Assembly (NCBI GenBank): GCA_016700095.1
Contig: CP065002.1
Coordinates: 240,463 to 304,462 of the forward strand
DNA length: 64,000 nucleotides
Direction of reading: 5' to 3'
Source of the DNA: Candidatus Woesebacteria bacterium
GTDB lineage: Bacteria; Patescibacteriota; Microgenomatia; UBA8517
The position numbers were made by a program, and so were the translations under genes. Positions 27,584-48,408 of this stretch are shown one piece after another. How positions within the stretch are numbered: the first letter of the stretch is position 1; each line of letters starts with the position of its first letter. The notes beneath the pieces are model-generated. The model ran no database searches and was not told the origin of the DNA. It saw nothing but the letters and a program-made list of their open reading frames with translations.

Positions 27584-27626
<43 letters not shown>

Positions 27627-28149: not shown

Positions 28150-28290
28150 ATGTGGTCTACAAAGCATGTATGCTTTAAGAAACAGCCAACAATTAACAAA
28201 CAACTAACAACGAATTTAAGTTGGTAGTTGAGAGTTGAGGGTTGGGTGTTGTCTACAAAATGTATACATATTTTGTAGACTGCGTTCCGT
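28150..28290 (+). other. second 16S expansion/intervening hairpin (gtctacaaa...tttgtagac) with aacaattaacaaacaac motif
   Basis: replaces the short helix between ccgtaaacgatg and gctaacgcgttaagc. Confidence 0.5.
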
Positions 28291-28338
28291 AAGCTAACGC
28301 GTTAAGCGAGCCGCCTGGGGAGTACGAGCGCAAGCTTA

Positions 28339-28370
<32 letters not shown>

Positions 28371-29375: not shown

Positions 29376-29687
29376 ATGGCACTTACTAAATCAGATTTTA
29401 AAGAAATGAGAAAGGTTGTATCTGAAAGTGTGACCGATATAGTTGTCGATGCATCTCAATTAATTCTTAGTGGTATCCAAAAGATGTTTGATGTGCGGGA
29501 TATTAGATTTGATGTTCATGATAAAAAACTGGATAAATTAACTAAAGATATCCAAAGTATTAAACTAGATACGAGGTTTATAAAAGATGATATTGCAGGT
29601 ATAAATGGTGAGCTTGGACTCAAAGCATCTAAAAAAGATATAATCAAACTTACCCAAAAGGTTGAAAATTATCATCCCTCGAATTAG
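29376..29687 (+). CDS. hypothetical coiled-coil protein, paralog of 37066..37314
   Basis: shared M-LTK-D...R-V termini and ...HPS C-terminus. Confidence 0.4.
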   Translation: MALTKSDFKEMRKVVSESVTDIVVDASQLILSGIQKMFDVRDIRFDVHDKKLDKLTKDIQSIKLDTRFIKDDIAGINGELGLKASKKDIIKLTQKVENYHPSN

Positions 29688-29951
29688 ATTGATATTTATA
29701 ATTCATCCCACTAAAAAACCCGCCGTGAAGCGGGTTAAACTTTTCTCAAATACAAAAGCGTATGGAGGGTAGGTGTGCAAAGAGGTGCTTTGCTGTGTCT
29801 ATTCTTCGTAAGAAGAAAAGGGTACAGCCAGGCATTCTTTGTAAAAGTGCTTTAGAGGTTGTGTAGAAAACCTAACCCTCCACACGTTTTTGTACTTAGC
29901 TATTATAGCATCACTTAAAAATAATTCACGGGTATTTTTCAGGATAACAGA

Positions 29952-31226
29952 TTGATATCACCTCGTACAAAATACATTTTTGAAATCTCAATAGTATGGG
30001 GTAAAATACCTACCATGTGTCGAGAAAGAAACTTGGTGGAAAAAAAGACTAGAGTAAACGGAATTGATGTGCATGGATCAGAAAATCCACTAAATCAGCC
30101 GGAAATAAATGCTTTAGTGGAACAAGTAAATCAGAATCCTGTTTTACACCCAAACATCCTAAAAGCAACACATTTTGCATGGCAAGGTGATACTGATACT
30201 GTACCGCAAATCGTTGGGTATGAGCTAGGGTGGAGAGGGCATTTGCAATTTGTTGATGCACATTACCAGGCACTGTCCCAAATTGTCGGTAAAAGTATAA
30301 AAGGAGTCGATGTTGAATTGACCCGTATGGTCGTTAACGAGAATGAATCGGTAGGTCCCGCATCATACCACTTGGGATATTTAGTTTCGGGTTTCAAAGA
30401 TTCCGCTGGTACTGATGGAAATTGGCACCCATCACCATATAACCCTACAGTGTCAGCCTATTACAATCACGCGCATAAAATTGACTATGGTGAAGTGCAT
30501 GAAATGGGTCACAGAGTGCTGCACCTGCCAGATACTTATTCCATTGATACTGTACTTTCTCCTACCGGAAATGACATACTGGCGAATGTACCACAGCCAT
30601 GGCTTACATATATGACTCACAAAAGAAACGATAGAGGTCCTGATTTGATGAATGGAGGTTTGTATATGGGGGAAGCAAGTTATCGCCTTGATCCATACGC
30701 CACATGGTTACTTCAAAGGCGTTTTGTACAGGGTTGGCAGCATGATTTGGCACGAGCAATCCCAGAAGGCGCGTGGAACTTTCCTCATGAGGTACCAAAT
30801 GAAACTACACTCGAAGCAAAGGGTTGGGAAGGAGCCAGCTTGACAATTTTTAGAACCGATGGCACAGAAATGGAAAAACATCTTGCGGAAGAACCGGTAT
30901 TTTCCGGGCAATTTAATCAAGATGGCAAAATTACCATAGGAGATCCGTTTGAGGGTGTCGACAATAGTGACGGTTTTGTGCCGAATTATCGATCATTGCT
31001 ACTTCTTAAAGCCACAAGACCGGATGGAACCATTGGTGTTCGTTATATGGATATTGGTGATTTTAATATGGCTACGGGTTTAAAAGGGGAGCACTCAAGC
31101 CGTGCGGAAATGCGATTGATTGGTGGCTTTGCGGATGTTTCAGATCCGAATGTCACACCGGAGAATTTCAATTGGACGATATTACGTAATCCGATAGATG
31201 TTTATATGCCAATAGTTGCAAAGTAA
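29952..31226 (+). CDS. hypothetical protein with HEMGH (HExxH) zinc-peptidase-like motif
   Basis: motif only; GC content higher than surrounding genome. Confidence 0.45.
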   Translation: MISPRTKYIFEISIVWGKIPTMCRERNLVEKKTRVNGIDVHGSENPLNQPEINALVEQVNQNPVLHPNILKATHFAWQGDTDTVPQIVGYELGWRGHLQFVDAHYQALSQIVGKSIKGVDVELTRMVVNENESVGPASYHLGYLVSGFKDSAGTDGNWHPSPYNPTVSAYYNHAHKIDYGEVHEMGHRVLHLPDTYSIDTVLSPTGNDILANVPQPWLTYMTHKRNDRGPDLMNGGLYMGEASYRLDPYATWLLQRRFVQGWQHDLARAIPEGAWNFPHEVPNETTLEAKGWEGASLTIFRTDGTEMEKHLAEEPVFSGQFNQDGKITIGDPFEGVDNSDGFVPNYRSLLLLKATRPDGTIGVRYMDIGDFNMATGLKGEHSSRAEMRLIGGFADVSDPNVTPENFNWTILRNPIDVYMPIVAK

Positions 31227-31273
31227 GATTTCTATCAATTCGAGAGGTCCACGGACTATTGGGCACTTACTAA

Positions 31274-33436
31274 TTATTTGGAATTAATTACAAGTGTGTT
31301 TTGAGGATTAAGTAAACCTTTATTGTCATATGCAGTCCTATGCATTCCCACCGACTCCCAGATGTTTTTACCGCGAACTCGACGATATGTGTTATTCATT
31401 ACCTTAACCTTAGCGGGGTCTAGGAAATCTTCTGTTTTGTAAATCTTACCCGTTACCAAGTTTACTTCTTGCACAAGTGCGTCGAATGGTTTGTTTATCG
31501 CTTCTGCGCTGTCCCGTAAACCAAATTCGTTGTGTTTAGTACCATTTACCTCAAATACGTAGGTGTTTCCTCCAACGCCATTTTCTTTTTTATACTTTTG
31601 TTGCACCAGCTCCATAAACGCGCGTAAATTTCCAGACGTAATTTCGCGCATCAGCTTTTCAGGAGAATTGATGCCAACCTCAGCCAAGTAACCAGAGTTG
31701 TAAAGTTCAGCCAAAACATGTTGGTATTGCATTCGTTGAAACCTTTCTTCTGTGATTAATTCGGCACTTGGATTATTCAAACCGGATTTTAAAGCGATGT
31801 TGTCAAATGCAACTATTCCACCGTCCTTCACCACCATAATTGTTGTGCCATCACTTCCTTTTCGTAAGTTCCTCATGTACTCGTCTGAACCATCTCCTTT
31901 TATAACATCAGGCGTTTTATTCTGACCTCCAGTTATCCTTGAGGCATTTTCTAGAAATGCCCCATGTTGTGCATCTGATTGATAAAACATGCCGGCACGC
32001 GTAGTGCTGCTTAAAACTGAGAAACGTCCATTGATATTTGCCCCGTATCTTGAATTATCTGAATTATTTATAATGAATGCTGCCTCAAGCTCGTATCCTG
32101 GATCGATTTCCTTGTTTGCAAAACCATACGTATCTACTGTGGGTTCTTTGACTAAAACAGTTTGGATAACCAACTTTTTTGTTCTGTTTGAACTATTGAG
32201 ATCGTGCGTAGTGGCAAAGAAAAGGTGGTTGCCAGTTTCAGGTACATCAACACCGAGATCATCTAGATCAATATTATTTGTATCAACCGCACCAACCACC
32301 CCACGCATTGCACTTTCAAGATCTCTTGTTTCATAGACTTTTGCATCAACAAATCTGACTTTTTCTTCTACGACTATGCCATTTTGTATTTGCTGAACCT
32401 TAAACTCCATGTCATTAAGCGTGTTCATATTACCGCCTCTTTGGACAAAAACTTCCTCAAAGAAATAAAAGGGTAAAATATCAGTAGTTACTAAACCTGC
32501 GATACTTGTTTGCTGGCCTGAATGGGCAAGTAGAAAATTCGTATTCTTTCTATCGGTTGTTACAACACCTGTTAAATCGGGATGTTGATTATAACTATCA
32601 AATCTTTCGATTTGTTCGTGATCATCAGTTGCTATTCCACCAGATTGTAAGTTAAGACGCATGGAAACTTCACCAGTTTCTGAATTTATGGATGAATAGC
32701 GGGGATCTAAGTGTTTTTCTACCCACCCGGGTGTTTTATAAGTAGCTTCCAATATTTCTTTGGGGAAAACGATAGTAACATCTTCTTCCAGAGATATTTG
32801 TCCAATTCTTTTGTTGGGATTGGTTAACTTCTCCACATACTCTGGAGTGCTAGTTGGCTCTGGTTCATTTGCTGGAGTGCTAGTTGGCTCTGGTTCATTT
32901 GCTGGAGTGCTAGTTGGCTCTGGCTCATCAGTGGAGGTTGCAGTAGGTGTTGATTTATCGATTCCAGCTCCCGAACCGCTTCCTGAAACATGTGAATCGC
33001 GGTTATCGGGTCTATTTATATTTTGCTTTTGTGTATCCCCAAAGATTGCCCTTTTACCTTTTTTTATTTTATCATCAGCTGAGTTTACAATAATACTAGC
33101 TCCCACAAGTCCGGCAATTTTCAAAACATCACGCCTTGTTAACGCAAGTGGTCTATCGGATTGATAATTTTCATTTCGCTTACCTTTTTCGTCTTCTGAA
33201 ATATCAACTGTTACCTCACGTTTGGTGTAGGGAGATTTGTTTATTACAAGTTTATTATTTGGTTCTTCAGGTTTTTCTGCCATAGGAATTAACACCTCGC
33301 GTTGGGTGTATGGTGATAAATTAAGAAAACGTGTTTCATGTTCGCTCATATTAGTATAGCGTAAATAATTTATATGGAGATTTTGAAAGAAAGCAGATTG
33401 CCTAATTACTAACTGCAACCTGCTAACTACCATCAC
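31274..33436 (-). CDS. large secreted hypothetical protein with twin-arginine-like signal (TRRDVLKIAGLVGA) and PTSTPANEPE tandem repeats
   Basis: 36-bp perfect DNA repeats at about 32820-32930; N-terminal duplicated SPYT-REV motif. Confidence 0.55.
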   Translation of the reverse strand: MMVVSRLQLVIRQSAFFQNLHINYLRYTNMSEHETRFLNLSPYTQREVLIPMAEKPEEPNNKLVINKSPYTKREVTVDISEDEKGKRNENYQSDRPLALTRRDVLKIAGLVGASIIVNSADDKIKKGKRAIFGDTQKQNINRPDNRDSHVSGSGSGAGIDKSTPTATSTDEPEPTSTPANEPEPTSTPANEPEPTSTPEYVEKLTNPNKRIGQISLEEDVTIVFPKEILEATYKTPGWVEKHLDPRYSSINSETGEVSMRLNLQSGGIATDDHEQIERFDSYNQHPDLTGVVTTDRKNTNFLLAHSGQQTSIAGLVTTDILPFYFFEEVFVQRGGNMNTLNDMEFKVQQIQNGIVVEEKVRFVDAKVYETRDLESAMRGVVGAVDTNNIDLDDLGVDVPETGNHLFFATTHDLNSSNRTKKLVIQTVLVKEPTVDTYGFANKEIDPGYELEAAFIINNSDNSRYGANINGRFSVLSSTTRAGMFYQSDAQHGAFLENASRITGGQNKTPDVIKGDGSDEYMRNLRKGSDGTTIMVVKDGGIVAFDNIALKSGLNNPSAELITEERFQRMQYQHVLAELYNSGYLAEVGINSPEKLMREITSGNLRAFMELVQQKYKKENGVGGNTYVFEVNGTKHNEFGLRDSAEAINKPFDALVQEVNLVTGKIYKTEDFLDPAKVKVMNNTYRRVRGKNIWESVGMHRTAYDNKGLLNPQNTLVINSK

Positions 33437-33708
33437 CTATCTGCTAATTTCTAGTAATTATTCCCATCCAAGAAGTGAGTGTAAGAGCAGTACTCGTCTT
33501 TTTTGGCAACTAATTGCCAAAAGAGCCAAGTCCTGTTTGCCGGGCCCCACCCGGCACGCTTTAGAGGTTATTTTCTTACACCCACATCTTGAGCGGGAAG
33601 TATCTTTACTTGTGCAGGGTTGGACCCTGCAGACCAATTTTCATTTCCTCAAATAATTCACTTAAGAGATCAAAGTTGGTTAGTTTCCTGGATATAGAGA
33701 AAGGAATA

Positions 33709-33933
33709 CTAGAGGAGTTTTGCGAGTTCTTTGGTTGATATCCCAGCTTGTTTAAGAATCGCTCTTAATGTGCCTTGAGGAATCGGTTTCGCATGTACTG
33801 CTACTTGTGTCCATCTTCCGTCAGGATGTTTTAATCTTATGTGAGATCCTTTGCCGCCGACCTCCACAAAACCCAATTTAATTAATATTTTTATTAATCT
33901 CTTTGGTTTTATATTACGAGGTAGTTTGGGCAT
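33709..33933 (-). CDS. hicA: HicA-family mRNA interferase toxin
   Basis: 74 aa; KxxKRLIKILIKLGFVEV...GKGSHIRLKHP pattern of YcfA/HicA. Confidence 0.75.
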   Translation of the reverse strand: MPKLPRNIKPKRLIKILIKLGFVEVGGKGSHIRLKHPDGRWTQVAVHAKPIPQGTLRAILKQAGISTKELAKLL

Positions 33934-33959
33934 TTATTGACCAGATTATTAAGTTTTAC

Positions 33960-34235
33960 TTATGCGAAGGCGGCTTTGTATTTGGAAGGAATTTTCACCT
34001 TGGCAGAAGTAACTATTTGCTCTTCCACATTATCTATCGGTATTTCTTTTCCTTCTTTACCAAGTGTTTCAATTGCCAACTCTATTCCATCTTTTATGCT
34101 TTGCATAACTTCCTCAATACTATCTCCATAATCAGCTATACCCAAAGTGGGGCAATATGCATTGTAAACCTTATTGCCGTCAGGGTATTTTTCTGGTTCT
34201 ATGATAACTCTATAGTTAAGTACGCTCTTTTGCAT
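33960..34235 (-). CDS. hicB: HicB-family antitoxin (UPF0150-like)
   Basis: YRVIIEPE...GNKVYNAYCPTLG...GDSIEEVMQSIKDGIE pattern; adjacent to hicA. Confidence 0.6.
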   Translation of the reverse strand: MQKSVLNYRVIIEPEKYPDGNKVYNAYCPTLGIADYGDSIEEVMQSIKDGIELAIETLGKEGKEIPIDNVEEQIVTSAKVKIPSKYKAAFA

Positions 34236-35369
34236 ACTTAGGATTATATCATAGAGAATATATTAATTTTTTAACGTGCGATATCTTAAAAACAGCTCCC
34301 GTAATGGGATTAGAAATTAGGTAATTACCTAGTGCCTAGTTCCCATCTACCAACTACCATCTACTATCTACTAATTAGTTCCCATCTACTAACTACAAAC
34401 TACTATCTACTAATTTATAAACCAATTTTCAATTCTCAAACCATTTGCTTAAGAACTCAAAGTTGGTTTGCGCTGTCAATTTGTTGTGTCGTTCTCGAGT
34501 AAGTAGGGGGTCCGGCTTTCGCCGGTCTTCTTTTGCTAGCCGCGTGGCTAGCTACTCGGGAGCGACTGTCAATCGACAGCGCTTAAATAGTTAATCAAGT
34601 GTGTCCCACTTGCGTAATTGCTTAAAATTACGAAGTGAAAAATATCACTTATTAACTATCCCAAGGATAGGATCTTAAAAGATTCAAATAAGGTTACCCT
34701 TACTTAAAAAAATTAAAAATCTTTTCCCTTTCGAATCGGGTCTTAAGTTGTTCCGAAGAACAAGTGACTTAAGTTCCAATTCTTTTGGAGTTGAGATTAA
34801 AAAGTTTGGAGTTTAGGCGAACCTAAATCCTGATTTTCAATTCCCAATTCCGGGTGGTTTTCTAGTCGCCTAAGGCAACAGTCCTCAATAGTGAGAGGTT
34901 TTTCAAAAACCGGTTTTGTTGTTTTTTGTCCTAATGGACCCAGATTTGAACCTTAGTTCAAATTAACAACACTGGTTTCTTCTAGATTCTCTAAAGTGAG
35001 AAACAATTGCTTGTAGTAAGCAACTTTCGAAGAAGGGTAATTAAAAGATTGGTATTTTTTGTAATCGAGATTTCTCTCAACTACCAATACTTTTCTTTCA
35101 ACTACCGTTGATCCCTATCCTGAGACTGATTTATCTCAAGCTTTTAGCAGTGTTTTTCTCAATGCCGTCCGGCATAAGTTGAGAAAAAATAGGGTAGTGA
35201 ATGACAAATATCCGCGTTAGCACGATTAGCTAACCTCGCGTCCAACTAAGCTAGGCTTAGTTTACTGGTCTTTCCAGAAGGCAATAGCCTTAAGAATTAA
35301 CACCCAGAGGGAACGGACAACCTTACGGTCCAACTGTCTCACGACGTGAGACCGTAAGGATTTAAATAC

Positions 35370-36743
35370 CTAGTCTTCTCGGCCGCGCCATGCGCCAAAG
35401 GCCATCCCCAAGAGGATGGCTATGGGCGCGAGTGCGCACAACCATATAAGACTTGGCCCACTGCCGCCGGTCGAGGCACTTTTTAGGGTGCCAGGGGTGG
35501 AAACCAAAGGCGGCCGGCTGGGGGTGATGCTGACGGCGGGGGTGGGAGTGAGTTTGGTATCAGCGCATTGAGCGATGAAAACTACAGCGGGGTTACCCAC
35601 TTTTCCCGAGAATCGGTTGTTTTCGCTCTCAAAAAGAGGCGATAAAAACCAATTTTGAGGGAAGCTGTCACCTCCGCGGAACGCCTGCCCCTGACCAAGG
35701 GTTGACGTAACATTTGTTACAATCACACCCTCAGGGGGCAATTCCCATGTTCCCATGTATCCACTGCCGTCGGCCGTGTGCGGAAAGCCACCGAAATAGC
35801 TTCCAACGCCGATGGTTACGGTCATGGTTTCACCATGACCAGGCGTATATGACCCGTCAGGCCACTCACAGAAGTGATACCCTCTCAGGTACCCCTTAAT
35901 GATTCCCGGCGTGGGGCTGGGGGTGTTGGTGACCCACGGCGTTGCCGTTGTCGTCGGTGTTGGTGTAACCGTGCCAGGGGTGGGGGTGAAGGGCGATGTC
36001 GGTGTTGGCGTCACGGTCAATGTCGGTGTGAACGTTGGCGTCACGGTCAATGTCGGTGTGAACGTTGGCGTCACGGTCAATGTCGGTGTGAACGTTGGCG
36101 TCACGGTCAATGTCGGTGTGAACGTTGGCGTCACGGTCAATGTCGGTGTGAACGTTGGCGTCACGGTCAATGTCGGTGTGAACGTTGGCGTCACGGTCAA
36201 TGTCGGTGTGAACGTTGGCGTCACGGTCAATGTCGGTGTGAACGTTGGCGTCACGGTCAATGTCGGTGTGAACGTTGGTGTCCATGTGGGCGTGGGTTCG
36301 GGACAGTTTCCCTGAACTACTACTTGAACGCTTCCACCTGGGTTGGGAGATGTATCCACGTGATTAAATTCACAATGGACTTCTCCGCCCGGAGGTATTT
36401 GAAATCCAAAACTGTTTTGGTATGGGTCAACTGTTCCCAATAAACCCTCAAAACCGTTCGAGCAGGAGTAAGTTATTAACTCCCATTCGTCTGGTCCCGA
36501 CCATACGCTCTGTGTATTTACGTTTACCTCCATTGTTGATGTGTTGCTATCATTGACGATTGTGACATCGTCCGTGACTTGTTCACACCAATAACTGGGT
36601 GTTGTGTGCTCTGAGCACAGTATTGCACTTATCCAGTAGTAGTTTTGGGCTTGGATATTTGTGGCACTGCCACCTAACAACATTGTTGAAAACAATAGGA
36701 TCCCGAAGATCCATTTCGTGATTTTCGCTGTCTGTTTAGACAT
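35370..36743 (-). CDS. GC-rich secreted surface protein with 9-10 perfect TPTFTPTLTV repeats and C-terminal hydrophobic anchor plus RGRED tail
   Basis: signal peptide, 30-bp perfect DNA repeats, C-terminal TM. Confidence 0.6.
   Translation of the reverse strand: MSKQTAKITKWIFGILLFSTMLLGGSATNIQAQNYYWISAILCSEHTTPSYWCEQVTDDVTIVNDSNTSTMEVNVNTQSVWSGPDEWELITYSCSNGFEGLLGTVDPYQNSFGFQIPPGGEVHCEFNHVDTSPNPGGSVQVVVQGNCPEPTPTWTPTFTPTLTVTPTFTPTLTVTPTFTPTLTVTPTFTPTLTVTPTFTPTLTVTPTFTPTLTVTPTFTPTLTVTPTFTPTLTVTPTFTPTLTVTPTPTSPFTPTPGTVTPTPTTTATPWVTNTPSPTPGIIKGYLRGYHFCEWPDGSYTPGHGETMTVTIGVGSYFGGFPHTADGSGYMGTWELPPEGVIVTNVTSTLGQGQAFRGGDSFPQNWFLSPLFESENNRFSGKVGNPAVVFIAQCADTKLTPTPAVSITPSRPPLVSTPGTLKSASTGGSGPSLIWLCALAPIAILLGMAFGAWRGRED
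35995..36290. repeat. about 10 perfect tandem copies of a 30-bp unit (gtcaatgtcggtgtgaacgttggcgtcacg) inside the surface-protein gene
   Basis: direct reading. Confidence 0.9.
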
Positions 36744-37065
36744 GTTTAACCTCCGTTAAATGTTGCGAAATAAGAAAGAACTACTTCACTTACTTTTCCA
36801 AGCTCTTTACAAGCTAGGCGAGGGGAAGATCAAAACCCTCGGTGATTTCCGTTCACCCAGTCCCTTTAAGGACTCGAAGTAAAATTACTTTAGCTGGTGC
36901 ACTTATCATTCTCTTGATTAGTAAAGTATCAGACGCGTTTTTACGCTGACACATCAAGAGGCTTGGGCTGAGACCCAAACTTACAAACCAACTGTCCCTA
37001 TATTGAGGGAAATATGCAGTCAAGCGTTTGCTTGACGGTTAACTTTTCAAGTGTTTAAATGAACT

Positions 37066-37314
37066 ATGTCACTTACTAAAAAAGATTTAGATCTAATAAG
37101 ACAAGTTATTGACGATTCGATGAGAGATACGAATAATCCTCTCAAACTTGAACTTAAAGCCGATATACTTGATTTCAAACTTGAAATCTTGAAAGAAATC
37201 AAAGCACTTCGTGAAGAAGTGGCGGTGACAATTTCATATCGGGACATGATTGCTAAAAACGAGGAAGATATAAAGAAACTAATCAATATCCATCCTTCAT
37301 TTTCGCACACCTAA
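37066..37314 (+). CDS. hypothetical coiled-coil protein, paralog of 29376..29687
   Basis: see 29376. Confidence 0.4.
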   Translation: MSLTKKDLDLIRQVIDDSMRDTNNPLKLELKADILDFKLEILKEIKALREEVAVTISYRDMIAKNEEDIKKLINIHPSFSHT

Positions 37315-37570
37315 AATTTTGCATATTTCCCCCAATAAGGGTAAGTAGTAACTTTCTTAAGTTACACCCTTTTGCCTTAACCCTCGATTTATTAATCGGG
37401 GTTTGCCGTATGTCCATCCACAACTAATGCAATTTGGATAAATCCAATAAAGGATTTGTCCTCCTACGCAATGAGCTACGGAAGGACTGCACTCCGATTA
37501 TTATCGGAGTTTGCCATTCACTAAGTTTTTAAAGAGCTAGCGGTAACTTGTACCTTTCTCTATTAGTAAT

Positions 37571-37624
37571 CTGTAATTGGCAGCTCGCGTTGGTTAAATT
37601 TAACTTTGGCCAACTGCCACTTAC
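37571..37624 (+). repeat. exact 54-bp direct repeat, copy 1 (ctgtaattggcagctcgcgttggttaaatttaactttggccaactgccacttac)
   Basis: identical copy at 38151-38204. Confidence 0.9.
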
Positions 37625-37802
37625 TGATTACTAATGTCAGGAATTAGGCACTAGGTAGTTAGATAATTACCTAATTCCTAAACTGATCCAGTATCCTATA
37701 TTGCGTACCTGCACAAATGTCGTTTGAGCGTTAGTTGTCTGCCAGTTATGTGACCTTCTGACGCAACAAACAACAAACAACAAACAACAATCAACTGTCA
37801 AC

Positions 37803-37935
37803 TTGTAACAAGTAACCTGTAACAAATAGTAAATAACCTGTAACAAGTAACTAGTAACAAGTAACTAGTAACAAGTAACTAGTAACAAATAACTAGTAAC
37901 AAATAACCTGTAACAAATAACCTGTAACCATTAAC
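37803..37935. repeat. about 9 tandem 14-bp units (taacaagtaactag / taacaaataacctg) preceded by an aacaaac microsatellite
   Basis: direct reading. Confidence 0.85.
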
Positions 37936-38150
37936 CGATAACTGGTAACTTGTTACCATTAATTATTAGTTTTTCGAACCTTATGAGTTTCGGTGATACA
38001 CCCATCAAGACTGTTGTCATGCACGCTTCCTTGTCATTCCCGCGGAAGCGGGAATCCAGCCTAGATCCCATAGATCCCCGATCAGGTCGGGGATGACAAA
38101 ATATGAAACTTGTGTACCCGATACTTTTTTACTTTTGCACTTTTAGCACC

Positions 38151-38204
38151 CTGTAATTGGCAGCTCGCGTTGGTTAAATTTAACTTTGGCCAACTGCCAC
38201 TTAC
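38151..38204 (+). repeat. exact 54-bp direct repeat, copy 2
   Basis: identical to 37571-37624. Confidence 0.9.
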
Positions 38205-38974
38205 AGACGGCTAATATCCTAACAAGATATCGAATATCGAATATCGAATATCTAACACCTGCTATAGACATATGCTACTTGCTTTTCAATTACCCCAAAT
38301 GTCTTTTGGTTGCCAATTGCTCGACAAATAGGTGACAGACGGGCTCTATCGGGCTTTTATTGCCTTTGTTTGATTTGCATACCCAGCTTACGGCTAAGTA
38401 TCAAATTCAATTTCTTGGCTTCTTGGCAGACAGGTCAGTCGAACTCACAAGTCGTGTTTCAACCAATCTGCCTGCCCAAAAGCCAAGGCTGTAGTTAGTG
38501 ATATTTTTCGACCTTCAAACGCAAAAAACCACACCTTAGAGTGTGGTTAAACTATATGCAAACTATTAAAGCCAAACCCGAGTACCTACCCGCAGTTTAA
38601 GCAGTATTCTCCCTTTAGCTTTTTTTCCTTCTAATAAATAAAAAGTATTAAGGCTTAAAAAGCTTATAAAGGAGTAAAAAAATAGTTTGCACAAGATCTG
38701 CCGTTTGACAAGATCAATTAATTTCCTCTAAAGCTACCTAGATTTCTCTAAGTGTTGGCAGTCTATCAAAGAGAGTGATAATTGTCAAGAGGGGAAATAA
38801 AGTAGCAAGTAGCAAGTAGCAAGTAGGTGGTAGATGGGTAGGAATTGAGTAAATACTAATTCCTAAACTCTAATTTCCTAAAAACAACCCCGGGGGTTGG
38901 AATAGCCTCAATCTAACCCCCGGGGTTGGAATTTGAAAACTTGGAAACTAATTCATTGCCTCTGTGAGGTATGG

Positions 38975-41959
38975 CTATTTTCCAATTTTTGCAAGCTCGG
39001 CTTTGAGGATGGATAGCTTATCTGCGTCGTTTTTCATTTTTTCCTTAATTTTTTTGTTTTCTGCTTCCTGGTCAAACGCCGGTCTTACCGGTGGATACTG
39101 TGGCGGATATTGATTCGTTGGGTAGAAGGGTGCGTTGGGATACTGTGTTGGTGGATAATTTGTATTTGGATAGTTCTGCGGTTCCATCAACGGATTTTGT
39201 TCTTGAGGCGGGTAATACTGAGGATTAGGATTGTTTGTATTTTTCACGGCTTTATTTTCACTCCTAAACTGAGGCTGTTTTGGCCTGGCGTGGTGACCGG
39301 CTTTCGGATTCGAGTATGATTTTGCTTGAGGTTTGGGAAGGGTGGAATTTGGACTTTGGACAACATTTTGTCCAGAATCGTAGAGCTGTTGTTTTTGAGT
39401 GTTTGGATTTTTATTAAATGGTTTGTTATTTTCTTTTAGCCACGGAAACTGGGGAACATCACTTGCTGCCTGGGCGTTGGGGTTGGGATGTGATTTAGTG
39501 TGTTTCGGCCTTCCTTCTTTCACTTCAGGACTTTTTTCACTCAATATATCTTTTTCACCTTGCACCAAAGGAATGGCGTGGCTTGTTTGTTGGGGAACAG
39601 CAATAGGTGCCGGAATAATTCTATTTGCCAAATCATTAAATTGGCTTGGTTCGGGAGCGGTGTTATTTACTGCCTGACCCGGATTGAGTATTGGGAGTGT
39701 TTCACCCATAGTTGCATTTTGAATTGGTATTGATCCAAGTGGCATGCCGGAAGGGATGATTTCTTGTGAGTCGACATCATAAGTTTCGTTTTCTGAAACT
39801 TCTGCCAACGACGGTTCTTTTGCCGATCGCGACCATCTTTCGCGGCTGACTTTGATAACCTTTTCTCGATTGCTGTTTATACTTTCCGGAAGTGAAAGCG
39901 TGGTTGCCAAAAATGGACGGGTCGAGTGCGCATCGATCATGAGTTTTATCGCAATTTGATAATTTGCCAAATTAACCATATCGTTTTCGCTAAATACCTC
40001 GGCAAATTCTTTATTAAATACCCTCGCGTCATCAGCTCCTACGGAAAAAGAAATCATCGTACCCGCATTTCCCAAAATTGCCTTTTGAACAGTATCGGGA
40101 ATTTGAGCCATATACTGATTTGCAAGAAGTAGGGCTAAGCCGTATTTGCGCGCTTCAGACAAAATTTTCACAAAGCTGTCTGTTGCGAAATTCTGAAACT
40201 CGTCAACATACAGGTAAAAAGGAACTCGATCTTCTTTGGGTGTGTCGACTCGGTGCATAGCCGCGAGTTGGAATTTCGTAATTAGCATTGCACCAAGAAG
40301 CGAAGCGTTGTCTTCACCAAGTCTACCTTGCGACAAATTCACCAAGAGTATTTTTTTCTGATTCATAATGTCATCAATCGAGATTGAACTTTTGGGTGTG
40401 CCGATTATTCGCCGTATCATTGGTGAAGTCACGAACTGTCCAACTTTGTTTTGGATTGGTGCTATAGCTTCTTTCTGTAATTTCTCAGGCATTGCATCAA
40501 ATTCGTCTTGCCAGAAATGAACCAAGGCTTCGTCTTTAAGTTTAGATACGACACGGTTTCTGTACGACTGGTTAGCTAAAATTCTCAAAACATCAGCCAG
40601 TGTGGAATTGGGAATTTCTGTCAGCGTGAGGAAAGAGTTTCTTAAAATGTATTCCATCCGTGCGGACCAGACATTTGACCAGACTTTAGTAAAAATGCTC
40701 ATAAGGCCTGCTACAACAAGTTCGGCTTCTTCGCGGTTGGTTACCTCTAATGGATTAAGAATGATCGGGTATTCTTTATCTGCCGGATTAAAGTAAATAG
40801 TGTCGTTGATCCTGGAGCTTGGAATGTAGTTTAATAAGTCCTCGCATAAATCTCCGTGAGGATCGATAACGGCGATACCGCGATCTTTCTTCAAATCATC
40901 GACACCCATGTTTGCTATCATTGTCGATTTACCGGTTCCGGTTTTTCCTACCACCCAGACATGCCTGAGGCGATCTTTGTCTTTGATGCCAAAAACTGTG
41001 TCTTTGTTTTGATAACGTGTTTTTGCAAAGAAATTTATCCTTGATTTTTCGGCAGGGGACTTGTCGGTTGCAATCGGTAAGTTTTGCGGAGGTTCAGTGA
41101 GAACCGAATTTCCCCAAGCAATTGTCGGAGTTTTTATCAAAGAGCTGGGAAGATGCCAAAGCGTTGCGATTTCCTGAATATTTAATATATGTTTGTCAGC
41201 AACCCTTCTTTCTTTAAGATATTCGATTTCTTCGGCAAGTTTTCCCTTTTTGGGAATCTTGACTACGAAGGCGTTACCGTCGGCTCGGGTATAAATTTCA
41301 AAAGTATTAATCAGATCTCCAAGTGTTTCTTCACTTGGTGCAAGAATTCTCAGAGAAGTTTTGAAGCCGGGATAAGATATTTTTTCTTTGATTATTGAAG
41401 CATCAGGTCTGGGTTTATATGTACCGTCCTCGTTTTTGGTGCCAAACTCAGCGTATTTCTGACCGTTTGCTTGCCAATTGCTGTTGACGGTTTCAAGAGC
41501 GATCTGAAACATTATAAAATCATCGGCAGGAGCTTTCGACAAAACACTCAAAATTGACGACATCGGATCGACATCTTTGAACGACGGATATACTGTTAGT
41601 GGGTAATAATCACCTTGTTTAAGTTTGAAATATGCCACTACATAATTTGTAAGGTCGACATGAGAGATGGGATCGTTAACCTTATCAATGGTTGTAAGGG
41701 GATAGCTGGAGTGGATCTGAGTTTCGATAAAAGGAATAAGGTTGATGTCGCAAGTTAGCTGAAAATGAACTTGCCCGGCAAAGTGAATAATTTCAAGCGC
41801 AAGAGGTTGGGTATTTGTAGTCGATTTCAGAAAACCAAAAAGTGACCCCCCTGAACCCGGATTGATTTGGGTAAGTGCCGTCAAAAAAGTTTGCGCCGCC
41901 TCTGGAGTAACTTCAGTGTTACGGGGAACTTTGAGTAAAAGTGTGGTTAAGTTGGACAT
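38975..41959 (-). CDS. P-loop ATPase of the VirB4/VirD4/TraD/HerA (type IV secretion-like) superfamily with a roughly 300-aa Q/N/P/Y-rich disordered C-terminal tail
   Basis: Walker A VVGKTGTGKST, Walker B LYVDEFQNF, ARKYGLALLLANQYMAQI...AILGNAGTMISF motif typical of T4SS ATPases/coupling proteins; no N-terminal TM helices. Confidence 0.6.
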   Translation of the reverse strand: MSNLTTLLLKVPRNTEVTPEAAQTFLTALTQINPGSGGSLFGFLKSTTNTQPLALEIIHFAGQVHFQLTCDINLIPFIETQIHSSYPLTTIDKVNDPISHVDLTNYVVAYFKLKQGDYYPLTVYPSFKDVDPMSSILSVLSKAPADDFIMFQIALETVNSNWQANGQKYAEFGTKNEDGTYKPRPDASIIKEKISYPGFKTSLRILAPSEETLGDLINTFEIYTRADGNAFVVKIPKKGKLAEEIEYLKERRVADKHILNIQEIATLWHLPSSLIKTPTIAWGNSVLTEPPQNLPIATDKSPAEKSRINFFAKTRYQNKDTVFGIKDKDRLRHVWVVGKTGTGKSTMIANMGVDDLKKDRGIAVIDPHGDLCEDLLNYIPSSRINDTIYFNPADKEYPIILNPLEVTNREEAELVVAGLMSIFTKVWSNVWSARMEYILRNSFLTLTEIPNSTLADVLRILANQSYRNRVVSKLKDEALVHFWQDEFDAMPEKLQKEAIAPIQNKVGQFVTSPMIRRIIGTPKSSISIDDIMNQKKILLVNLSQGRLGEDNASLLGAMLITKFQLAAMHRVDTPKEDRVPFYLYVDEFQNFATDSFVKILSEARKYGLALLLANQYMAQIPDTVQKAILGNAGTMISFSVGADDARVFNKEFAEVFSENDMVNLANYQIAIKLMIDAHSTRPFLATTLSLPESINSNREKVIKVSRERWSRSAKEPSLAEVSENETYDVDSQEIIPSGMPLGSIPIQNATMGETLPILNPGQAVNNTAPEPSQFNDLANRIIPAPIAVPQQTSHAIPLVQGEKDILSEKSPEVKEGRPKHTKSHPNPNAQAASDVPQFPWLKENNKPFNKNPNTQKQQLYDSGQNVVQSPNSTLPKPQAKSYSNPKAGHHARPKQPQFRSENKAVKNTNNPNPQYYPPQEQNPLMEPQNYPNTNYPPTQYPNAPFYPTNQYPPQYPPVRPAFDQEAENKKIKEKMKNDADKLSILKAELAKIGK

Positions 41960-42129
41960 GGTATTTATAGTATAACAGGAGAAGAAAGGTGTGATAAATA
42001 TAGATAATAGAAAACGTTTTCAAATATTTTAGGTAAAGCTATACGGGCTATACAGGGTCCAGCCCTGGAAGGGCTGGACCCTGTAATATCCATTTGTGTT
42101 ATAATAGCCACGCAAAGGAGGTGATATTA

Positions 42130-42288
42130 ATGAGAGAATCTGGAGATCCACTAACACCATTACAGACACAAGACGAGTTTGAAAGTACACACAAACCGGA
42201 AGTTTCAGGCACTGCTTCTGATGAACCAGAAACAGAAAATACACAGACACCTGTACCTGCTAGTGACAACACAGCACAACAAAGCTAA
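42130..42288 (+). CDS. small highly acidic S/T/P/E-rich protein with extended SD (aaggaggtgata)
   Basis: ATG 8 nt after perfect anti-SD complement; divergent from the ATPase gene. Confidence 0.4.
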   Translation: MRESGDPLTPLQTQDEFESTHKPEVSGTASDEPETENTQTPVPASDNTAQQS

Positions 42289-42485
42289 ACCGTAGCTATT
42301 TACGAAATTTCGTATTTATAGGTGTTTAGGGTTGGATTGGGGATGCATTCATAAAATACTCGAGTAAAGACACTGAGGGGATTGTTATTGTGTATTAAGA
42401 AATTATTATTTATTAAAAGTAGCTTTAACTTTATGACTATGCACGAGGTAATTATTTATAGATTAAGATTAAGGAGGTGATATAT

Positions 42486-42698
42486 ATGAAAGATAGAATA
42501 CAAAGAGTAGTGGATATTGAAACAGGAAAGCTGCAGGCAAATTCAAGAAAACCTGGAGGAAAAAAAGATCGAAAAATTGCAATAAAGGCCGCGGAGCTGA
42601 TGTTAGAAAATCCTGATATGACTCCAGAAATAGCACTTAACAAACTTGATCCTGAAAGTGCAAGGCTTTTGGGTGAACTTAGGGAGAAGGAAATTTAA
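42486..42698 (+). CDS. small basic/acidic hypothetical protein with the same extended SD
   Basis: aaggaggtgatatat-ATG. Confidence 0.4.
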   Translation: MKDRIQRVVDIETGKLQANSRKPGGKKDRKIAIKAAELMLENPDMTPEIALNKLDPESARLLGELREKEI

Positions 42699-42955
42699 AA
42701 GGGTTTATATGACTAATAGAATTTTATTGATGGTTGTAGTTTGACCAATTATTTTTTGTCTACTCCTAAAGATTAAACTCCCTCGTTATTGGGAGCCGCG
42801 CATAGTAATTTGTATTTAGAAGTAGATTGCGATAGGGAAACTGACGATGAGAAAGTTGAGTTTCTTATTTCAGCTATAAATATAATCACAAATCTCAACT
42901 AATATTTACGCACTAAGTTTCTGAATCAGAAATCTTAACTCTAAATATATATTAG

Positions 42956-43029
42956 TGGGCGCGCATGGACTCGAACCATGGACCTCCAAATTATCAGTTT
43001 GGCGCTCTAACCAACTGAGCTACGCGCCC
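42956..43029 (-). tRNA. tRNA-Ile (anticodon GAT), inverted relative to the rRNA genes
   Basis: reverse complement gives gggcgcgtagctcagttggttagagcgccaaacTGATaatttgg...ggttcgagtccatgcgcgccca. Confidence 0.8.
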
Positions 43030-43432
43030 TCGTCAGAGCAAGTTCCGCTTTCCGCCAAGCAAACTTGGCTTATCGCTCCACTTGTCTTCCTCTTCACTTT
43101 TACAGTTGTAAAAGTGGAAAAATGTGTTGCTTCACTTTTTGCAAACCACATATCGTTTATTGCAAAGCGTTACGTAATTTCTCCTTATCAATTTTGTACA
43201 AAAAAATTGGGAAAGATATTATTCCGCTTACTACTATGTAAACGCTTTTTTTAATACAAAACCCAAAACCAGATTCAAATAAACGAAAATCAATTTTGAG
43301 TTTATCGATACATAATTTATCATATATATGGGATTTAAACAATTGTTTAGTGGCGAAGAAATATAAACTTCAAAAATATAAATTTCACGCGCATTGACGG
43401 GAAATAGTTGACCCGTTTGGTATAATTAATAT

Positions 43433-43663
43433 GTGGGTATAATTAAAAAACTGTTTGGCGGAGATGATGAGACTTATGTTGTGCATGGAACTCCAGACGG
43501 AACGATGACTGATGTTGAACCAAATGATATCATACTAAAGGGTAAGGAGATACGTGAATATCATGAAAGATCAGGGAAACACCCTGAGCATTGTGGTGCC
43601 GAAATTGCGGCGGATATTGTTAGTCGAAGACCACGTGTGTTTAATACAAAAGAAAGAAATTAA
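43433..43663 (+). CDS. hypothetical small protein
   Basis: ORF track. Confidence 0.3.
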   Translation: MGIIKKLFGGDDETYVVHGTPDGTMTDVEPNDIILKGKEIREYHERSGKHPEHCGAEIAADIVSRRPRVFNTKERN

Positions 43664-43906
43664 TTACCTTATCCTCGTTGACTTCAATTTAAATAAGCCT
43701 TATAATAGCTTCTAGCTTTTGAGTCGGAATAAACAGTTGGGATGAATAGTCCCGACTTTCGAACTAATAAGTTTGAATTCGTTCAATCATCAGCCAGCTT
43801 ACGCTAGCTAGATTCTTGAACTAATATAAATGATAAGCCTATTTGTAACAAATAAATTTAGAGCGCTTATTTTGCGCTTCTAGACAGGGCTTATATTTAG
43901 TTATTT

Positions 43907-43931
43907 ACCGGCTTTTAAGCCGGTTTTTTTG
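43907..43931 (+). terminator. rho-independent terminator-like hairpin (accggctt ttaa gccggt) followed by a T7 run
   Basis: direct reading. Confidence 0.5.
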
Positions 43932-44084
43932 TTTCTAGTATAAATACTAGATATAATTCGCACATTAAATTTTACTTGCCCTACATTCATCTAAAATTCG
44001 AAAAACGAATTTATAAGAGGAAGAACAATGGAGCGTTGAAAGCAAGCTTTCTGCCTGCTTAATTTAGTGGACTCGTTCCGACGC

Positions 44085-44308
44085 GGGCCGTTAGCTCAGT
44101 TGGATAAGCAAAGCTTGGCCACTTGATCTAACCACCTTACGGGTTGTTAGCTCAGTTGGATAAGCAAAGCTTGGCCACTTGATCTAACCACCTTACGGGT
44201 TGTTAGCTCAGTTGGATAAGCAAAGCTTGGCCACTTGATCTAACCACCTTACGGGCCGTTAGCTCAGTTGGATAAGCAAAGCTTGGCCACTTGATCTAAT
44301 CGCCTTAC
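44085..44308 (+). repeat. 4 x 56-bp tandem units, each starting with tRNA-Ala nt 1-19 (gggccgttagctcagttgg) followed by ataagcaaagcttggccacttgatctaaccaccttac
   Basis: unit starts 44085, 44141, 44197, 44253; tRNA starts 44309. Confidence 0.9.
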
Positions 44309-44385
44309 GGGCCGTTAGCTCAGTTGGCTAGAGCGCTACATTTGCAATGTAGAGGTCGTGGGTTCGAATCCCACACGGTCCACCA
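44309..44385 (+). tRNA. tRNA-Ala (anticodon TGC) with G3:U70 and encoded CCA
   Basis: acceptor gggccgt/acggtcc, anticodon loop tTTGCaa, T-loop ttcgaat, CCA present. Confidence 0.85.
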
Positions 44386-45034
44386 ATGAGTACATTGATG
44401 AACCATGTGGTTTTCGAGGAATGCAACCAAGTAGGGAAAGTGCATGGCGAATCCCACACGGTCCACTCATTAGGAATTGGGAATTAAGTAGTTAGTAGTT
44501 AGTAGATGGTAGATTGGTAATAGAAATTTGGATTTTTAACATTAGTATTTAGTTTTAAGTTTCAAGTACCAACAATTAAGAATTGCGGAATACTTGACAC
44601 TAAATACTTATTAGTAGGTAATAACAACGCAGAAAAATTTTGTTGTGAGTTGTGAGAACCGGTTAGACTTAACCAGTTTTACAGAACACACCAACAGATT
44701 TGTACTTTAACAACTAAGAGAATGAAGTCACTTTAAGTGTACTTCATGGAAAAGGCCGTGAACCATCATTTATTTGATGATTCACAACACAAAAGCAATT
44801 TTGCAAAGCATGATGCTTTGCATTGAGAAAAATCCCGTACTTGATACGGGATGAAACGCTAAGTTTAAGTTTACTTAACGCAGACAGTGGATGCCTTGGT
44901 CTAGATTACCGAAGAAGGACGTGCAAGACTGCGAAAAGCGTCGGTGAGTTGTCAAGAAACATTACAGCCGGCGATGTCCGAATGGGGAAACCCGCACTGC
45001 TTCACCGCAGTGAACTCGTGCTCCAAGGGGCACT

Positions 45035-45141
45035 CTAAACAGGTAACAATTAACTACCAACTAGAATTAGTAATTGACTTTTAACTATAAGTTAACAGTT
45101 GAAAACTCATTGGTGTGTTGATTGTTGTTTGTTTGGAGTGC
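45035..45141 (+). other. 23S intervening hairpin 1 (helix 9/10 region)
   Basis: extra sequence between ggggcactc and ggagtgcc relative to conserved 23S; aacaattaac...gttgattgttg arms. Confidence 0.5.
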
Positions 45142-45254
45142 CTATTAAGGCGCGTAGAGGGAACCGCCCGAACTGAAACATCTAAGTAGGGCGAGGAAGA
45201 GAAATCAACGAGATTGCCTAAGTAGCGGCGAGCGAAACGGCAAGAGCCCAAAGG

Positions 45255-45355
45255 TGTGCGTAGCACACAACAGTTAACAATTAACATTCAACTACCAACT
45301 TTAAATTAAAGTGTTGGCAATTGATTGTTGTAAGTTGAAAGTTGTGTGCTATGCG
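45255..45355 (+). other. 23S intervening hairpin 2
   Basis: cacaacagttaacaattaac ... gttgtaagttgaaagttgtgtg arms. Confidence 0.45.
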
Positions 45356-45652
45356 CACCGGTTGTGGGACCGCAACGTGGTAGTTTTTTTGATAGCAGAA
45401 TGACATGGAATAGTCAGCCATAGAACGTGATAGACGTGTATGCGAAATCAAAAGGACGCCTAGCGGTATCCCGAGTACGACGATGCATCTACATCGTCGG
45501 AATCTGGGGGAACCATCCTCCAAGGCTAAATATGATCTAGAACCGATAGTGGACAAGTACCGTGAGGGAAAGGTGAAAAGAAGGGCGGAACGCCCAGTGA
45601 AATAGAACCTGAAACTGTTTGCGAACAATCCGATAGAGCCAGTGCATAGCAC

Positions 45653-45742
45653 TGAACTATTAACTTCCAACACACAACAATTGACATTTGGTTAATTGTT
45701 GGGAGCTTGTATAGAAGCGTGTTGATTTGTTGATGGTTCCGC
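45653..45742 (+). other. 23S intervening hairpin 3 (helix 25 region, a classical IVS site)
   Basis: aacacacaacaattgac ... gcgtgttgatttgttgatgg arms. Confidence 0.5.
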
Positions 45743-46369
45743 GCTGTGCGCGGGTAATATCGTGCCTATTGAAGAATGAGCCAGTGAGTTTTCGTGTTTT
45801 TTAAGTTTAAGCCGTAATTACGGCGAAGGCGTAGGGAAACCAAGTGTGATAAGCGCGAATAAAAAAACGCGGAAGACCCGAAACCAGGTGAGCTATCCAT
45901 GAGCAGGGTGAAGCCCATAGAAATATGGTGTGGAAGCCCGAACTCGTATCAGATGCAATTGATTGGGATGACTTGTGGATAGGGGTAATATGCTAATCGT
46001 ACCTGGAGATAGCTGGTTCTCCCCGAAAGGTGTTTAGGCACCGTGGCATCGAAAAACTACAGGGTGGTAGAGCTACTGAATGGGATAATGAGGGTAATCT
46101 GAGTTATCTCAACCAAACTCCGAATAACTTGTAGTATGCGTTGCTAGACAGCCACACGGGGCTAAGCTCGTGTGACAAAAGGGAAACAACCCGGACTCTC
46201 GGCTAAGGTCTCTAATGTATCTTAAGTTTTTAAGGAAGTTTTTTATCATAGACAGCTAGGAGGTTGGCTTAGAAGCAGCCATCCTTTAAAGAAAGCGTAA
46301 CAGCTCACTAGTCGATGATAAGAAGCGCCGAAGATGTATCGAGGATTAAAGATACTACCGAAGCTAGAG

Positions 46370-46462
46370 GTGTCGTGCTTTGCACGCAACAACCAACAAA
46401 AACAGCCAACAGTCAACAATTAAGTTGGAAATTGGAAGTTGATTGCTGCGTGCAGAGTGCGG
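46370..46462 (+). other. 23S intervening hairpin 4 (helix 45 region, a classical IVS site)
   Basis: gcacgcaacaaccaacaaaaacagccaac ... ggaagttgattgctgcgtgc arms. Confidence 0.5.
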
Positions 46463-48293: not shown

Positions 48294-48408
48294 CCTGGTA
48301 ATTGGTGCGTCGTCGTACCACCTGATCCATTCCGAACTCAGAAGTGAAAGGCGACAGCGCGGACGATAGTTGTGGGGCAACCCACCGCGAAAATACGTCA
48401 TTGCCAGG
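48294..48408 (+). rRNA. rrf: 5S rRNA
   Basis: cctggtaattggtgcg...ccgaactcagaagtgaaa...ttgccagg; flanked by processing stem caggata/tatcctg. Confidence 0.8.

Follow-up and report, generated by a model that had tools for sequence, protein, structure and literature searches.

Tandem repeats with a unit of seven nucleotides are over-represented in bacteria, most strongly so among long simple repeats (PMC4692102, PMC4679880). Heterogeneous heptamer arrays with conserved positions and inverted pairs have been described in Xanthomonas and Nostoc, and TAACTGA arrays in Beggiatoaceae, Cyanobacteria and Bacteroidetes, with slippage proposed as their cause (PMC4692102, PMC4679880). A second class, the GTAG-tagged repetitive extragenic palindromes (REPs), forms a superfamily found in 8 phyla, in which dimers with GTAG outside predominate and intragenic members occur; these elements are thought to be moved by REP-associated tyrosine transposases (RAYTs), and their description makes no mention of a reiterated heptad (Di Nocera et al. 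2013, PMC3733652). Here we have analyzed a stretch of 64,000 nucleotides from a Candidatus Woesebacteria bacterium (contig CP065002.1, positions 240,463 to 304,462; hereafter the window), in which the rRNA operon is split, with approximately 16 kb between the 16S and 23S genes (gap 28947-44862). A first-pass annotation had proposed that a dispersed CTA/CTAC repeat family punctuates this spacer, with copies acting as cassette boundaries, terminal repeats of nested insertions or clustered protein-binding sites. According to our results, the repeats are probably tandem heptanucleotide repeats and GTAG-tagged palindromic hairpin repeats of the Woesebacteria genome, and not the ends of cassettes.

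The family itself is real and strongly non-random. Using the cores CTAC, CAAC, TAAC, CTAA and their complements, we counted 13 period-7 arrays of at least three units with a conserved 4-nt core in the window, compared with 0.06 in block shuffles, and the same cores gave no arrays at periods of 5, 6, 8, 9 or 11 nt. The repeat unit reads YAWCTAC on one strand and GTAGWTR on the other, with conservation limited to the 4-nt core. The pattern ATCTACNNNCTACNNNCTACNNNCTAC matched at 34345-34371 and 34384-34410 on the plus strand and at 38809-38835, 44488-44514 and 10613-10639 on the minus strand, with no match in 100 shuffles. Five CTAC/GTAG arrays of 4-5 units are present in the 64 kb, four of them intergenic (in three gaps) and one intragenic (10613-10637). 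The orientations assigned in the first-pass annotation were correct, the plus strand being C-rich at 34.3 kb (34347-34371 and 34386-34410) and G-rich at 38.8 and 44.5 kb (38802-38833 and 44488-44512). All 8 intergenic period-7 arrays fall within the 16S-23S gap, which has 7.1 kb of non-coding DNA, and the 13.1 kb of non-coding DNA elsewhere in the window contain none, so the uniform scatter named beforehand as decisive against the proposed boundaries was not seen here. Other components of the family were less robust. Taken alone, TAGGAATT does not reach significance (7 copies where 3.8 are expected, with 9 of 100 shuffles reaching 7), and the 14-mer ctaattcctaaact, reported as shared between two copies, is exact at 37671 and 38856 but again not significant by itself. 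Rfam searches at gathering and E-value thresholds gave no family in 33300-39000.

Among the five copies claimed, which we refer to as A to E (Table 1), three are strong (34301-34416, 38800-38885 and 44470-44536), one is a degenerate run (33402-33457) and one is merely a related hairpin (37636-37687). They are indeed intergenic, and in this sense only do they stand at gene-block ends. Copy A is bordered by the hicA stop (33709) and by the probable start of a 720-aa gene; CTA begins 6 of its 8 heptads and it is G-poor on the plus strand (A18 C16 G4 T18), with neither a CTAC array nor a significant fold in the interval originally claimed (33401-33465). Copies B, C and D fold as hairpins with the G-rich arm 5' and the C-rich arm 3'. 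In copy B, a short G-rich 5' arm (GTAATGGGATTAG...) is opposed to a C-rich 3' arm that continues into the heptads and has 4 G in 90 nt. The two arrays of this copy constitute a 39-nt unit present twice in tandem (92% identity); relative to the hicB start (34235, minus strand), they end ~110 nt upstream and the hairpin ends ~66 nt upstream. The hairpin of B is homologous, in inverted orientation, to 37640-37677, and copy C likewise to 34313-34343, through identical blocks of 13 and 11 bases with an 8-nt indel between them; we estimate the chance of this two-block match at ~1e-4 in the window. Copies C and D have a stem and the tail CTAATTCCTAAACT in common.

Copy D is the mirror case of copy B, with a long G arm where B has a long C arm. 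After the G arm come the junction GTAGATGGG (38830-38838), the hairpin TAGGAATTGAGTAAATACTAATTCCTA, of the TAGGAATT...AATTCCTA type, and a C arm that is short and degenerate (CTAATTC CTAAACT CTAATTT, 38856-38876). The copy is flanked by the ATPase terminator (38885-38935) and by a promoter-like site (38788-38760, minus strand), and, if the terminator is included, its fold reaches z = -6.6. The window contains exactly three occurrences of GTAGATGGG, all within B and D, where the array is joined to a short AT-rich hairpin (GGAATTAGG...CCTAATTCC type) via the junction GTAGATGGG / CCCATCTAC. In both copies GTAG(ATGGG) stands immediately before the stem-loop, and GTAG is there reiterated. Copy E, directly 3' of a duplicate of the tRNA-Ala 3' end, has no C in 67 nt and no C arm, and its fold is not significant (z = -0.2). 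Regarding identity between tandem units, AAGTAGC is repeated 3.9 times at 100% in D, and AGTAGTT 2.7 times in E. Copy C abuts an 84-nt palindromic repeat (37555-37638). This is one of two direct copies (the other at 38135-38218, 87% identity, each a palindrome) that flank copy C together with a 220-nt CAAC/TAAC heptad array (37757-37975).

With this structure, the family would be a set of small hairpin-plus-heptad repeats and not a single element with fixed ends; copy C would represent the hairpin alone, and A and E one-armed, decayed arrays. The perfect 7-nt copies of D, the 39-nt duplication of B and the periods of the neighboring array segment (37757-37975; 7, 14 and 28 nt) point to arrays that lengthen in place through slippage or tandem duplication. 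The arrays occupy the gaps between transcription units of a hypervariable island, which extends from the 16S gene to a conserved ATPase-tRNA-Ile-tRNA-Ala-23S block and whose variability would be independent of the repeats, these bounding no cassettes. More tentatively, each heptad could be a recognition unit for a putative nucleic-acid-binding factor, in which case the hairpin with its G-free/C-free tail would serve as punctuation between transcription units (a transcript-end structure, an insulator or a binding platform), and not as a recombination site.

Table 1. Coordinates of the repeat copies, the rRNA genes and other repeats of the window
Feature	Position	Strand	Sequence or composition	Remarks
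Copy A, degenerate heptad run	33402-33457	+	CTAATTA CTAACTG CAACCTG CTAACTA CCATCAC CTATCTG CTAATTT CTAGTAA	
Copy B, hairpin part	34301-34350		GTAATGGGATTAGAAATTAGGTAAT / ATTACCTAGTGCCTAGTTCCCATCTAC	fold z = -3.5
Copy B, heptad part	34345-34416	+	two arrays of four CTAC heptads (34347-34371, 34386-34410)	TTCCCATCTAC heading each array
Copy C, hairpin without heptad array	37636-37687		AGGAATTAGGCACTAGGTAG...ATTACCTAATTCCT	fold z = -2.5 and -2.9
Copy D	38800-38885		AAGTAGC x3.9, then AGTAGGT GGTAGAT	long G arm (38800-38835)
Copy E, G/T/A-only heptad run	44470-44536	+ (rRNA sense)	TTAGGAA TTGGGAA TTAAGTAG TTAGTAG TTAGTAG ATGGTAG ATTGGTA ATAGAAA TTTGGAT	
CTAC x4 array	10613-10637	-		within TrmH/SpoU methyltransferase gene (10435-10974, minus strand)
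16S gene	~26960 to 28946			Rfam alignment begins at 27394
23S gene	44863-48164			
5S gene	48294-48409			
rRNA hairpin insertions (six)	27021-27457, 28152-28280, 45000-45145, 45253-45359, 45640-45752, 46373-46463			in 16S and 23S
'23S rRNA intervening sequence protein' gene, PF05635	27081-27440			inside the first rRNA insertion
Tandem repeat outside the spacer	278-640		53-nt unit x6.8	
Tandem repeat outside the spacer	11478-11557		36-nt unit x2.2	immediately before tRNA-Glu
Tandem repeat outside the spacer	14974-15334		115-nt unit x3.1	extending into tRNA-Gln

The 16S-23S gap contains open reading frames (ORFs) of 103, 424 and 720 aa, hicA/hicB, ORFs of 457 and 82 aa, a 994-aa ATPase of the TrwB/TraG/HerA type (100% identical to a Candidatus Woesebacteria bacterium protein), tRNA-Ile, which like the ATPase is on the minus strand, and tRNA-Ala. 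A cyanobacterial origin, which the heptamers might suggest, was rejected in view of this identity and of the protein-coding insertion in the 16S gene. We compared the gap with related loci, L121 and L123/L124 (found through the ATPase) and L245. In three relatives (L121 and L123/L124) the genes follow the order 16S, variable genes, ATPase-tRNA-Ile-tRNA-Ala-23S-5S-S1, which argues that the split layout is ancestral and not the product of a recent nest of insertions. Gene content varies solely from the 3' end of the 16S gene to the 3' end of the ATPase gene, where the window has no gene in common with its relatives. In L245, a fourth relative, the operon is linked (16S-tRNA-tRNA-23S), and a LAGLIDADG gene lies at the 16S 3' end. 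Regarding the repeats, neither L121 nor L124 has CTAC arrays at the ATPase border. The tRNA-Ala-23S spacer, which contains copy E in the window, carries a heptad hairpin of the opposite polarity in L121 and none in L124 or L245. Arrays have been gained, lost and flipped between these relatives.

Similar elements are found in distant genomes. A scan of GTDB (one genome per species) with the 4-unit pattern gave at least 120 loci, and the matches listed belong to Bacteroidota, Acidobacteriota, Gemmatimonadota, Verrucomicrobiota, Planctomycetota, Cyanobacteria, Chloroflexota and several groups of the Candidate Phyla Radiation (CPR); among them, Pyrinomonadaceae (Acidobacteriota) show several loci per genome, and Proteobacteria and Firmicutes are few. 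Wherever the two types of array are adjacent in these listed matches, the GTAG array is 5' of the CTAC array (24 of 24). A metagenome scan for the junction plus heptads, CCCATCTACYAMCTACNNNCTAC, listed more matches than the ~7 we estimate by chance, and among those listed GTAGATGGG is upstream in 48 cases and downstream in 1, with loops of 5-139 nt. The arrangement of GTAGATGGG, hairpin and CCCATCTAC with heptads is thus found again in many phyla, the G arm lying 5' of the C arm in 72 listed matches versus 1. Besides, the exact 23-mer CCCATCTACCAACTACCATCTAC (34343-34365 in the window) has at least 22 occurrences among the metagenome matches listed; those inspected are on contigs of 63-68% GC, typically forming one arm of a long hairpin whose loop varies. 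Where foreign hairpins are well formed, their stem is made up of paired GTAG units. On high-GC contigs (L128-L235, from metagenome sample Ga0315912 and others) we also observed many copies per sample of the hairpin GTAGATGGTAGTTGGTAGATGGGGAATGGGGAAA - variable loop - TTTCCCCAWYCCCCATCTACCAACTACCATCTAC, which is often bordered by AAAAGAC and GTCTTTT, resembling a two-way terminator, and has no Rfam family. Rfam gave no match in 12 foreign loci, and querying the literature with sequence strings returned primers only.

Simple roles for the class were examined and discarded. An intrinsic-terminator role is not general, since at least 6 T in the next 12 nt follow merely 17 of 87 foreign hairpins. 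A 5'-untranslated-region element was rejected, the foreign arrays showing a mild excess of downstream ORF starts on the CTAC strand (49 vs 36), and so was a phage origin, with 0 viral contigs carrying the specific motif and 39 the general one.

The intragenic array, absent from the first-pass list and located outside the spacer, falls within a TrmH/SpoU methyltransferase gene, where the sense strand TCT ACA AGC TAC CAT CTA CTA TCT ACA encodes STSYHLLST. It is not an insertion, as homologues have equal length there in the alignment, nor a chance match, as the cores are retained when nucleotides are compared. In four other lineages (L246, with its array at 10332-10356, L247, L248 and L288), at 63-78% nucleotide identity, the CTAC cores are retained at 4, 4, 3 and 2 of the 4 positions. 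This makes 13 of 16, whereas by our estimates codon usage would give ~2 and inheritance with drift ~5. The cores are kept despite replacements of Ser (TCT) by Ala (GCT) or Thr (ACT) and of His by Lys or Glu, and the free positions of the heptad vary. From codon usage, the probability that the peptide STSYHLLST is encoded with four CTAC is 1e-4. Outside the array, the window and L246 use the same codon for 2 of 7 conserved Ser and 1 of 10 conserved Leu, and four TrmH genes have identical codons in 9 of 96 amino-acid-identical columns. Judged from these alignments, core retention in TrmH is significant, though not absolute, and it gives a hint that the CTAC motif may be recognised by some factor.

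One could argue that (YAWCTAC)n is not slippage debris at all, but a selected recognition motif for a factor common to many non-proteobacterial phyla. We hold this to be a tentative and rather doubtful extension. The use of CCCATCTACCAACTACCATCTAC as a hairpin arm both at 38% GC (Woesebacteria) and at 63-68% GC (metagenome) fits it, as do the near-absolute arm order and the four CTAC held in TrmH of several Woesebacteria lineages. If true, the motif would mark the rRNA-operon neighborhood and an RNA-modification gene, for instance for co-regulation or transcript processing. The idea of clustered protein-binding sites thus finds some support in the strict 7-nt spacing, the conservation of the core only and the TrmH retention, but no cognate protein was found; the arrays may act as multimeric recognition sites.

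A more specific version, which we judge unlikely, makes the heptads operators or centromere-like sites, bound by a dimeric protein; the arrays would then control neighboring promoters or serve in loading a partition or condensation system. The strict 7-bp spacing with a conserved core and free spacers agrees with it, and so do the strong orientation rule in other genomes and the conservation of cores within coding sequence, which is also seen in parS-type sites. Copy D ends 12 nt upstream of the promoter-like TTGACA-17-TAGACT, and copy B is upstream of hicBA; however, promoter-like sites are no commoner in the region than in shuffles, and arrays are not conserved at orthologous intergenic sites. 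The spacer yielded no ribbon-helix-helix (RHH), ParA or ParB gene, HicB gives a weak, sub-threshold match to a HicB-like antitoxin domain with no DNA-binding domain detected, and the motif is also present in phyla whose regulators are very different. The 82-aa and 103-aa ORFs, considered as DNA-binding candidates, had no informative match in family and PDB searches. The promoter-like site directly after copy D is strong, has an upstream TG and is followed ~220 nt 3' by a terminator-like hairpin; the resulting minus-strand element (38788-38527), which has no Rfam match, may be a small RNA.

Bertels and Rainey reportedly linked REP dimers (REPINs) to RAYT transposases in 2011. By analogy, our repeats could be GTAG-tagged hairpins moved in single-stranded form by a RAYT, the heptads being reiterated GTAG tags, although we find this quite unlikely. 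GTAG does stand directly before the stem-loop in B and D, and single metagenome samples contain many copies with conserved arms and variable loops. The G arm is nearly always upstream, as in GTAG-outside dimers (PMC3733652), but GTAG is paired in foreign stems instead of being an unpaired tag, and heptad reiteration is not described for REPs in that work. The Y1/RAYT motif Y..NP[VLI][RK]AG[LMI] was absent from the window and from 1.7 Mb of flanking loci, in a regular-expression search that is a weak test.

The reading of the first-pass annotation, in which B together with D or E would form the termini of nested insertions that a recombinase had moved or captured, we consider very unlikely. In its favor, B and D are inverted copies of one composite, with the hairpin outside and CCCAT plus heptads inside, D is located immediately beyond the conserved ATPase terminator, on the margin of the variable stretch, and the genes from the 16S to the ATPase 3' end are wholly different in relatives. 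A 53%-GC gene also lies between B and C. However, when GC content was compared, the segments between copies were at the background of 0.38-0.40, this 457-aa gene (0.533) being the sole exception, and its anomaly stops at the borders of the gene and not at the repeats, the flanks within the same segment being at background. Searches of the spacer ORFs against Pfam, PHROGs and NCBIfam found no integrase, transposase, relaxase or partition domain, and the Y1 motif was lacking, as stated above. No target-site duplications were seen, including at 34301 and 38885, and the arm lengths are grossly unequal. B and D thus present none of the matched termini, target duplication and transposase of a transposon or a miniature inverted-repeat transposable element. 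Integron features are missing too, with no integrase, no attC RYYYAAC...GTTRRRY cores in the CTAC copies and intervening genes on both strands.

Similarity between the copies leads to the same conclusion. B-D and B-E alignments score 29 and 30, values inside the distribution obtained when B is aligned with 305 CTAC arrays of other genomes (mean 23.8, 95th percentile 33), and seen from D and E, B is an above-average match among the foreign arrays. Since GC content, domains, scores and relatives, which lack such repeats at the ATPase border (L121 and L124), all speak against ends, the copies are best regarded as members of one loose family and not as paired termini. With the failure of the cassette framing, the 16-kb rRNA gap is not readable as a nest of repeat-bounded insertions. 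The 457-aa ORF itself (35370-36743; background GC 0.38) includes 9.3 copies of a 30-nt unit, 99% identical to one another, gave no match in Pfam and NCBIfam searches and was probably acquired.

Finally, long-range RNA pairing, in which the 34.3-kb C arm would pair with the 38.8- or 44.5-kb G arms in a transcript of pre-rRNA length and loop out the island, in the manner of intervening-sequence stems within rRNA genes, can practically be dismissed: the arms are 74-81% complementary and six rRNA hairpin insertions have heptad arms in the same C-left/G-right order, but any two CTAC/GTAG arrays show such complementarity, the intervening genes are antisense to the rRNA, the interval contains terminators, and relatives with the same split operon have no arrays.

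Several observations weigh against our preferred explanation of heptanucleotide and GTAG-tagged hairpin repeats. B and D form an inverted composite with ~73% identity over 63 columns and, seen from D, B matches better than 95% of the foreign arrays. The 8 intergenic arrays all lie in the 35% of the non-coding DNA that belongs to the rRNA gap, which is not predicted for generic non-coding filler; this concentration may reflect the relaxed constraint of the island or a property of the rRNA neighborhood. In addition, window arrays show both polarities relative to adjoining genes, a T tract accompanies ~20% of the foreign hairpins, and a fifth TrmH lineage retains just 2 of the 4 cores.

If our explanation is correct, the phenomenon of heptanucleotide and GTAG-tagged repeats would extend to a reduced CPR genome. 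It would also link two literatures that were described separately, those of tandem heptamers and of REP hairpins, the window elements combining both. Together, the strict arm order across phyla and the retention of the CTAC core in a conserved gene would make the purpose of heptamer repeats more testable.

The rRNA genes of the window carry heptads of their own. The Rfam alignment of the 16S gene starts late (Table 1) because its 5' part is split by a 437-nt insertion, which contains a PF05635 protein gene. The arms of the six insertions are composed of CAAC heptads (5' arm) and GTTG heptads (3' arm), an order opposite to that of the GTAG...CTAC class, and fold into helices of 4-5 bp interrupted by 2-3-nt internal loops (z from -6 to -9). 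None of the six is present in the rRNA of L124, and L245 has such hairpins, partly at other sites. Close to copy E, a 56-nt unit that includes the first 19 nt of tRNA-Ala is present in 4.4 copies immediately 5' of this gene (44084-44327), and the last ~18 nt of tRNA-Ala are duplicated ~65 nt downstream (44448-44467). L121 also keeps the 3' duplicate (about 700-790, minus strand), which co-varies with its own tRNA sequence; this suggests a structure or processing signal that may be maintained. Small ORFs starting with M(S/A)LTK.D...(I/M)R were found at 29376-29687 and 37066-37314 in the window and at 6850-7125 in L121, all in the variable stretch, with no significant BLASTP similarity past the N-terminus.

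By comparing the locus with known systems, we can place it among them. The omega repressor of pSM19035 (inc18 plasmids) is a dimer that binds WATCACW heptads, direct and inverted, upstream of promoters. Our arrays resemble these operators in their contiguous 7-bp units, both direct and inverted, their orientation preference and their position upstream of promoters, but differ in sequence and in their chromosomal setting in many phyla, with no RHH/ParA partner found here. Regarding rRNA intervening sequences (helix-tip hairpins, some with a PF05635 gene), the six CAAC/GTTG hairpins of the window do fit this type, and their arms are heptads too; they differ from the CTAC family in their core, in having the C-rich arm 5' and in lying inside rRNA helices, and the CTAC copies, outside the rRNA genes, are not intervening sequences.

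The likeness to long simple sequence repeats, such as the short tandemly repeated repetitive sequences (STRR) of heterocystous cyanobacteria, is closer. A 7-nt unit is repeated head to tail beyond chance, in short tandem arrays with conserved and free positions and inverted pairs; arrays of the class lie at many intergenic sites, and four of the five CTAC arrays of the window are intergenic. Array length, copy number and presence vary between relatives, as seen in the perfect tandem copies and in L121, L124 and L245. Some arrays of the class lie just 5' of start codons or within genes; no window array adjoins a start codon. The GGAATT/GGGAATT units of the window resemble the GGGAATC type (GGGAATC / GGGGAYT repeats of Xanthomonas and Nostoc). 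The differences reside in the CTAC/GTAG core, the CPR host (1.27-Mb contig), the short arrays (4-9 units) joined to a hairpin via a fixed junction, the G runs, too short for quadruplexes, and the concentration in the rRNA-operon gap. The canonical units CCCCAGT, TTGGTCA and CAACAGT do not occur in the CTAC family, CAACAGT being present solely within the rRNA insertion arms.

With respect to GTAG-tagged REPs and REPINs, in which GTAG stands at one end of a 6-13 bp stem-loop, our elements differ in that GTAG recurs every 7 nt and is itself part of the stem in well-formed copies, the stems are AT-rich, and a RAYT was not found by the motif search of the window and 1.7 Mb of flanking loci. GTAG does adjoin a stem-loop in B and D, but it is reiterated there and paired in foreign copies. 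They share with REPs the variable spacers between conserved arms, the intergenic and occasionally intragenic location, and the presence in Cyanobacteria, Planctomycetes, Verrucomicrobia and Chloroflexi, besides Proteobacteria. Above all they share the inverted pairs with GTAG outermost, which we observed in copies B, C and D and in 24 of 24 and 48 of 49 cases among the foreign matches listed.

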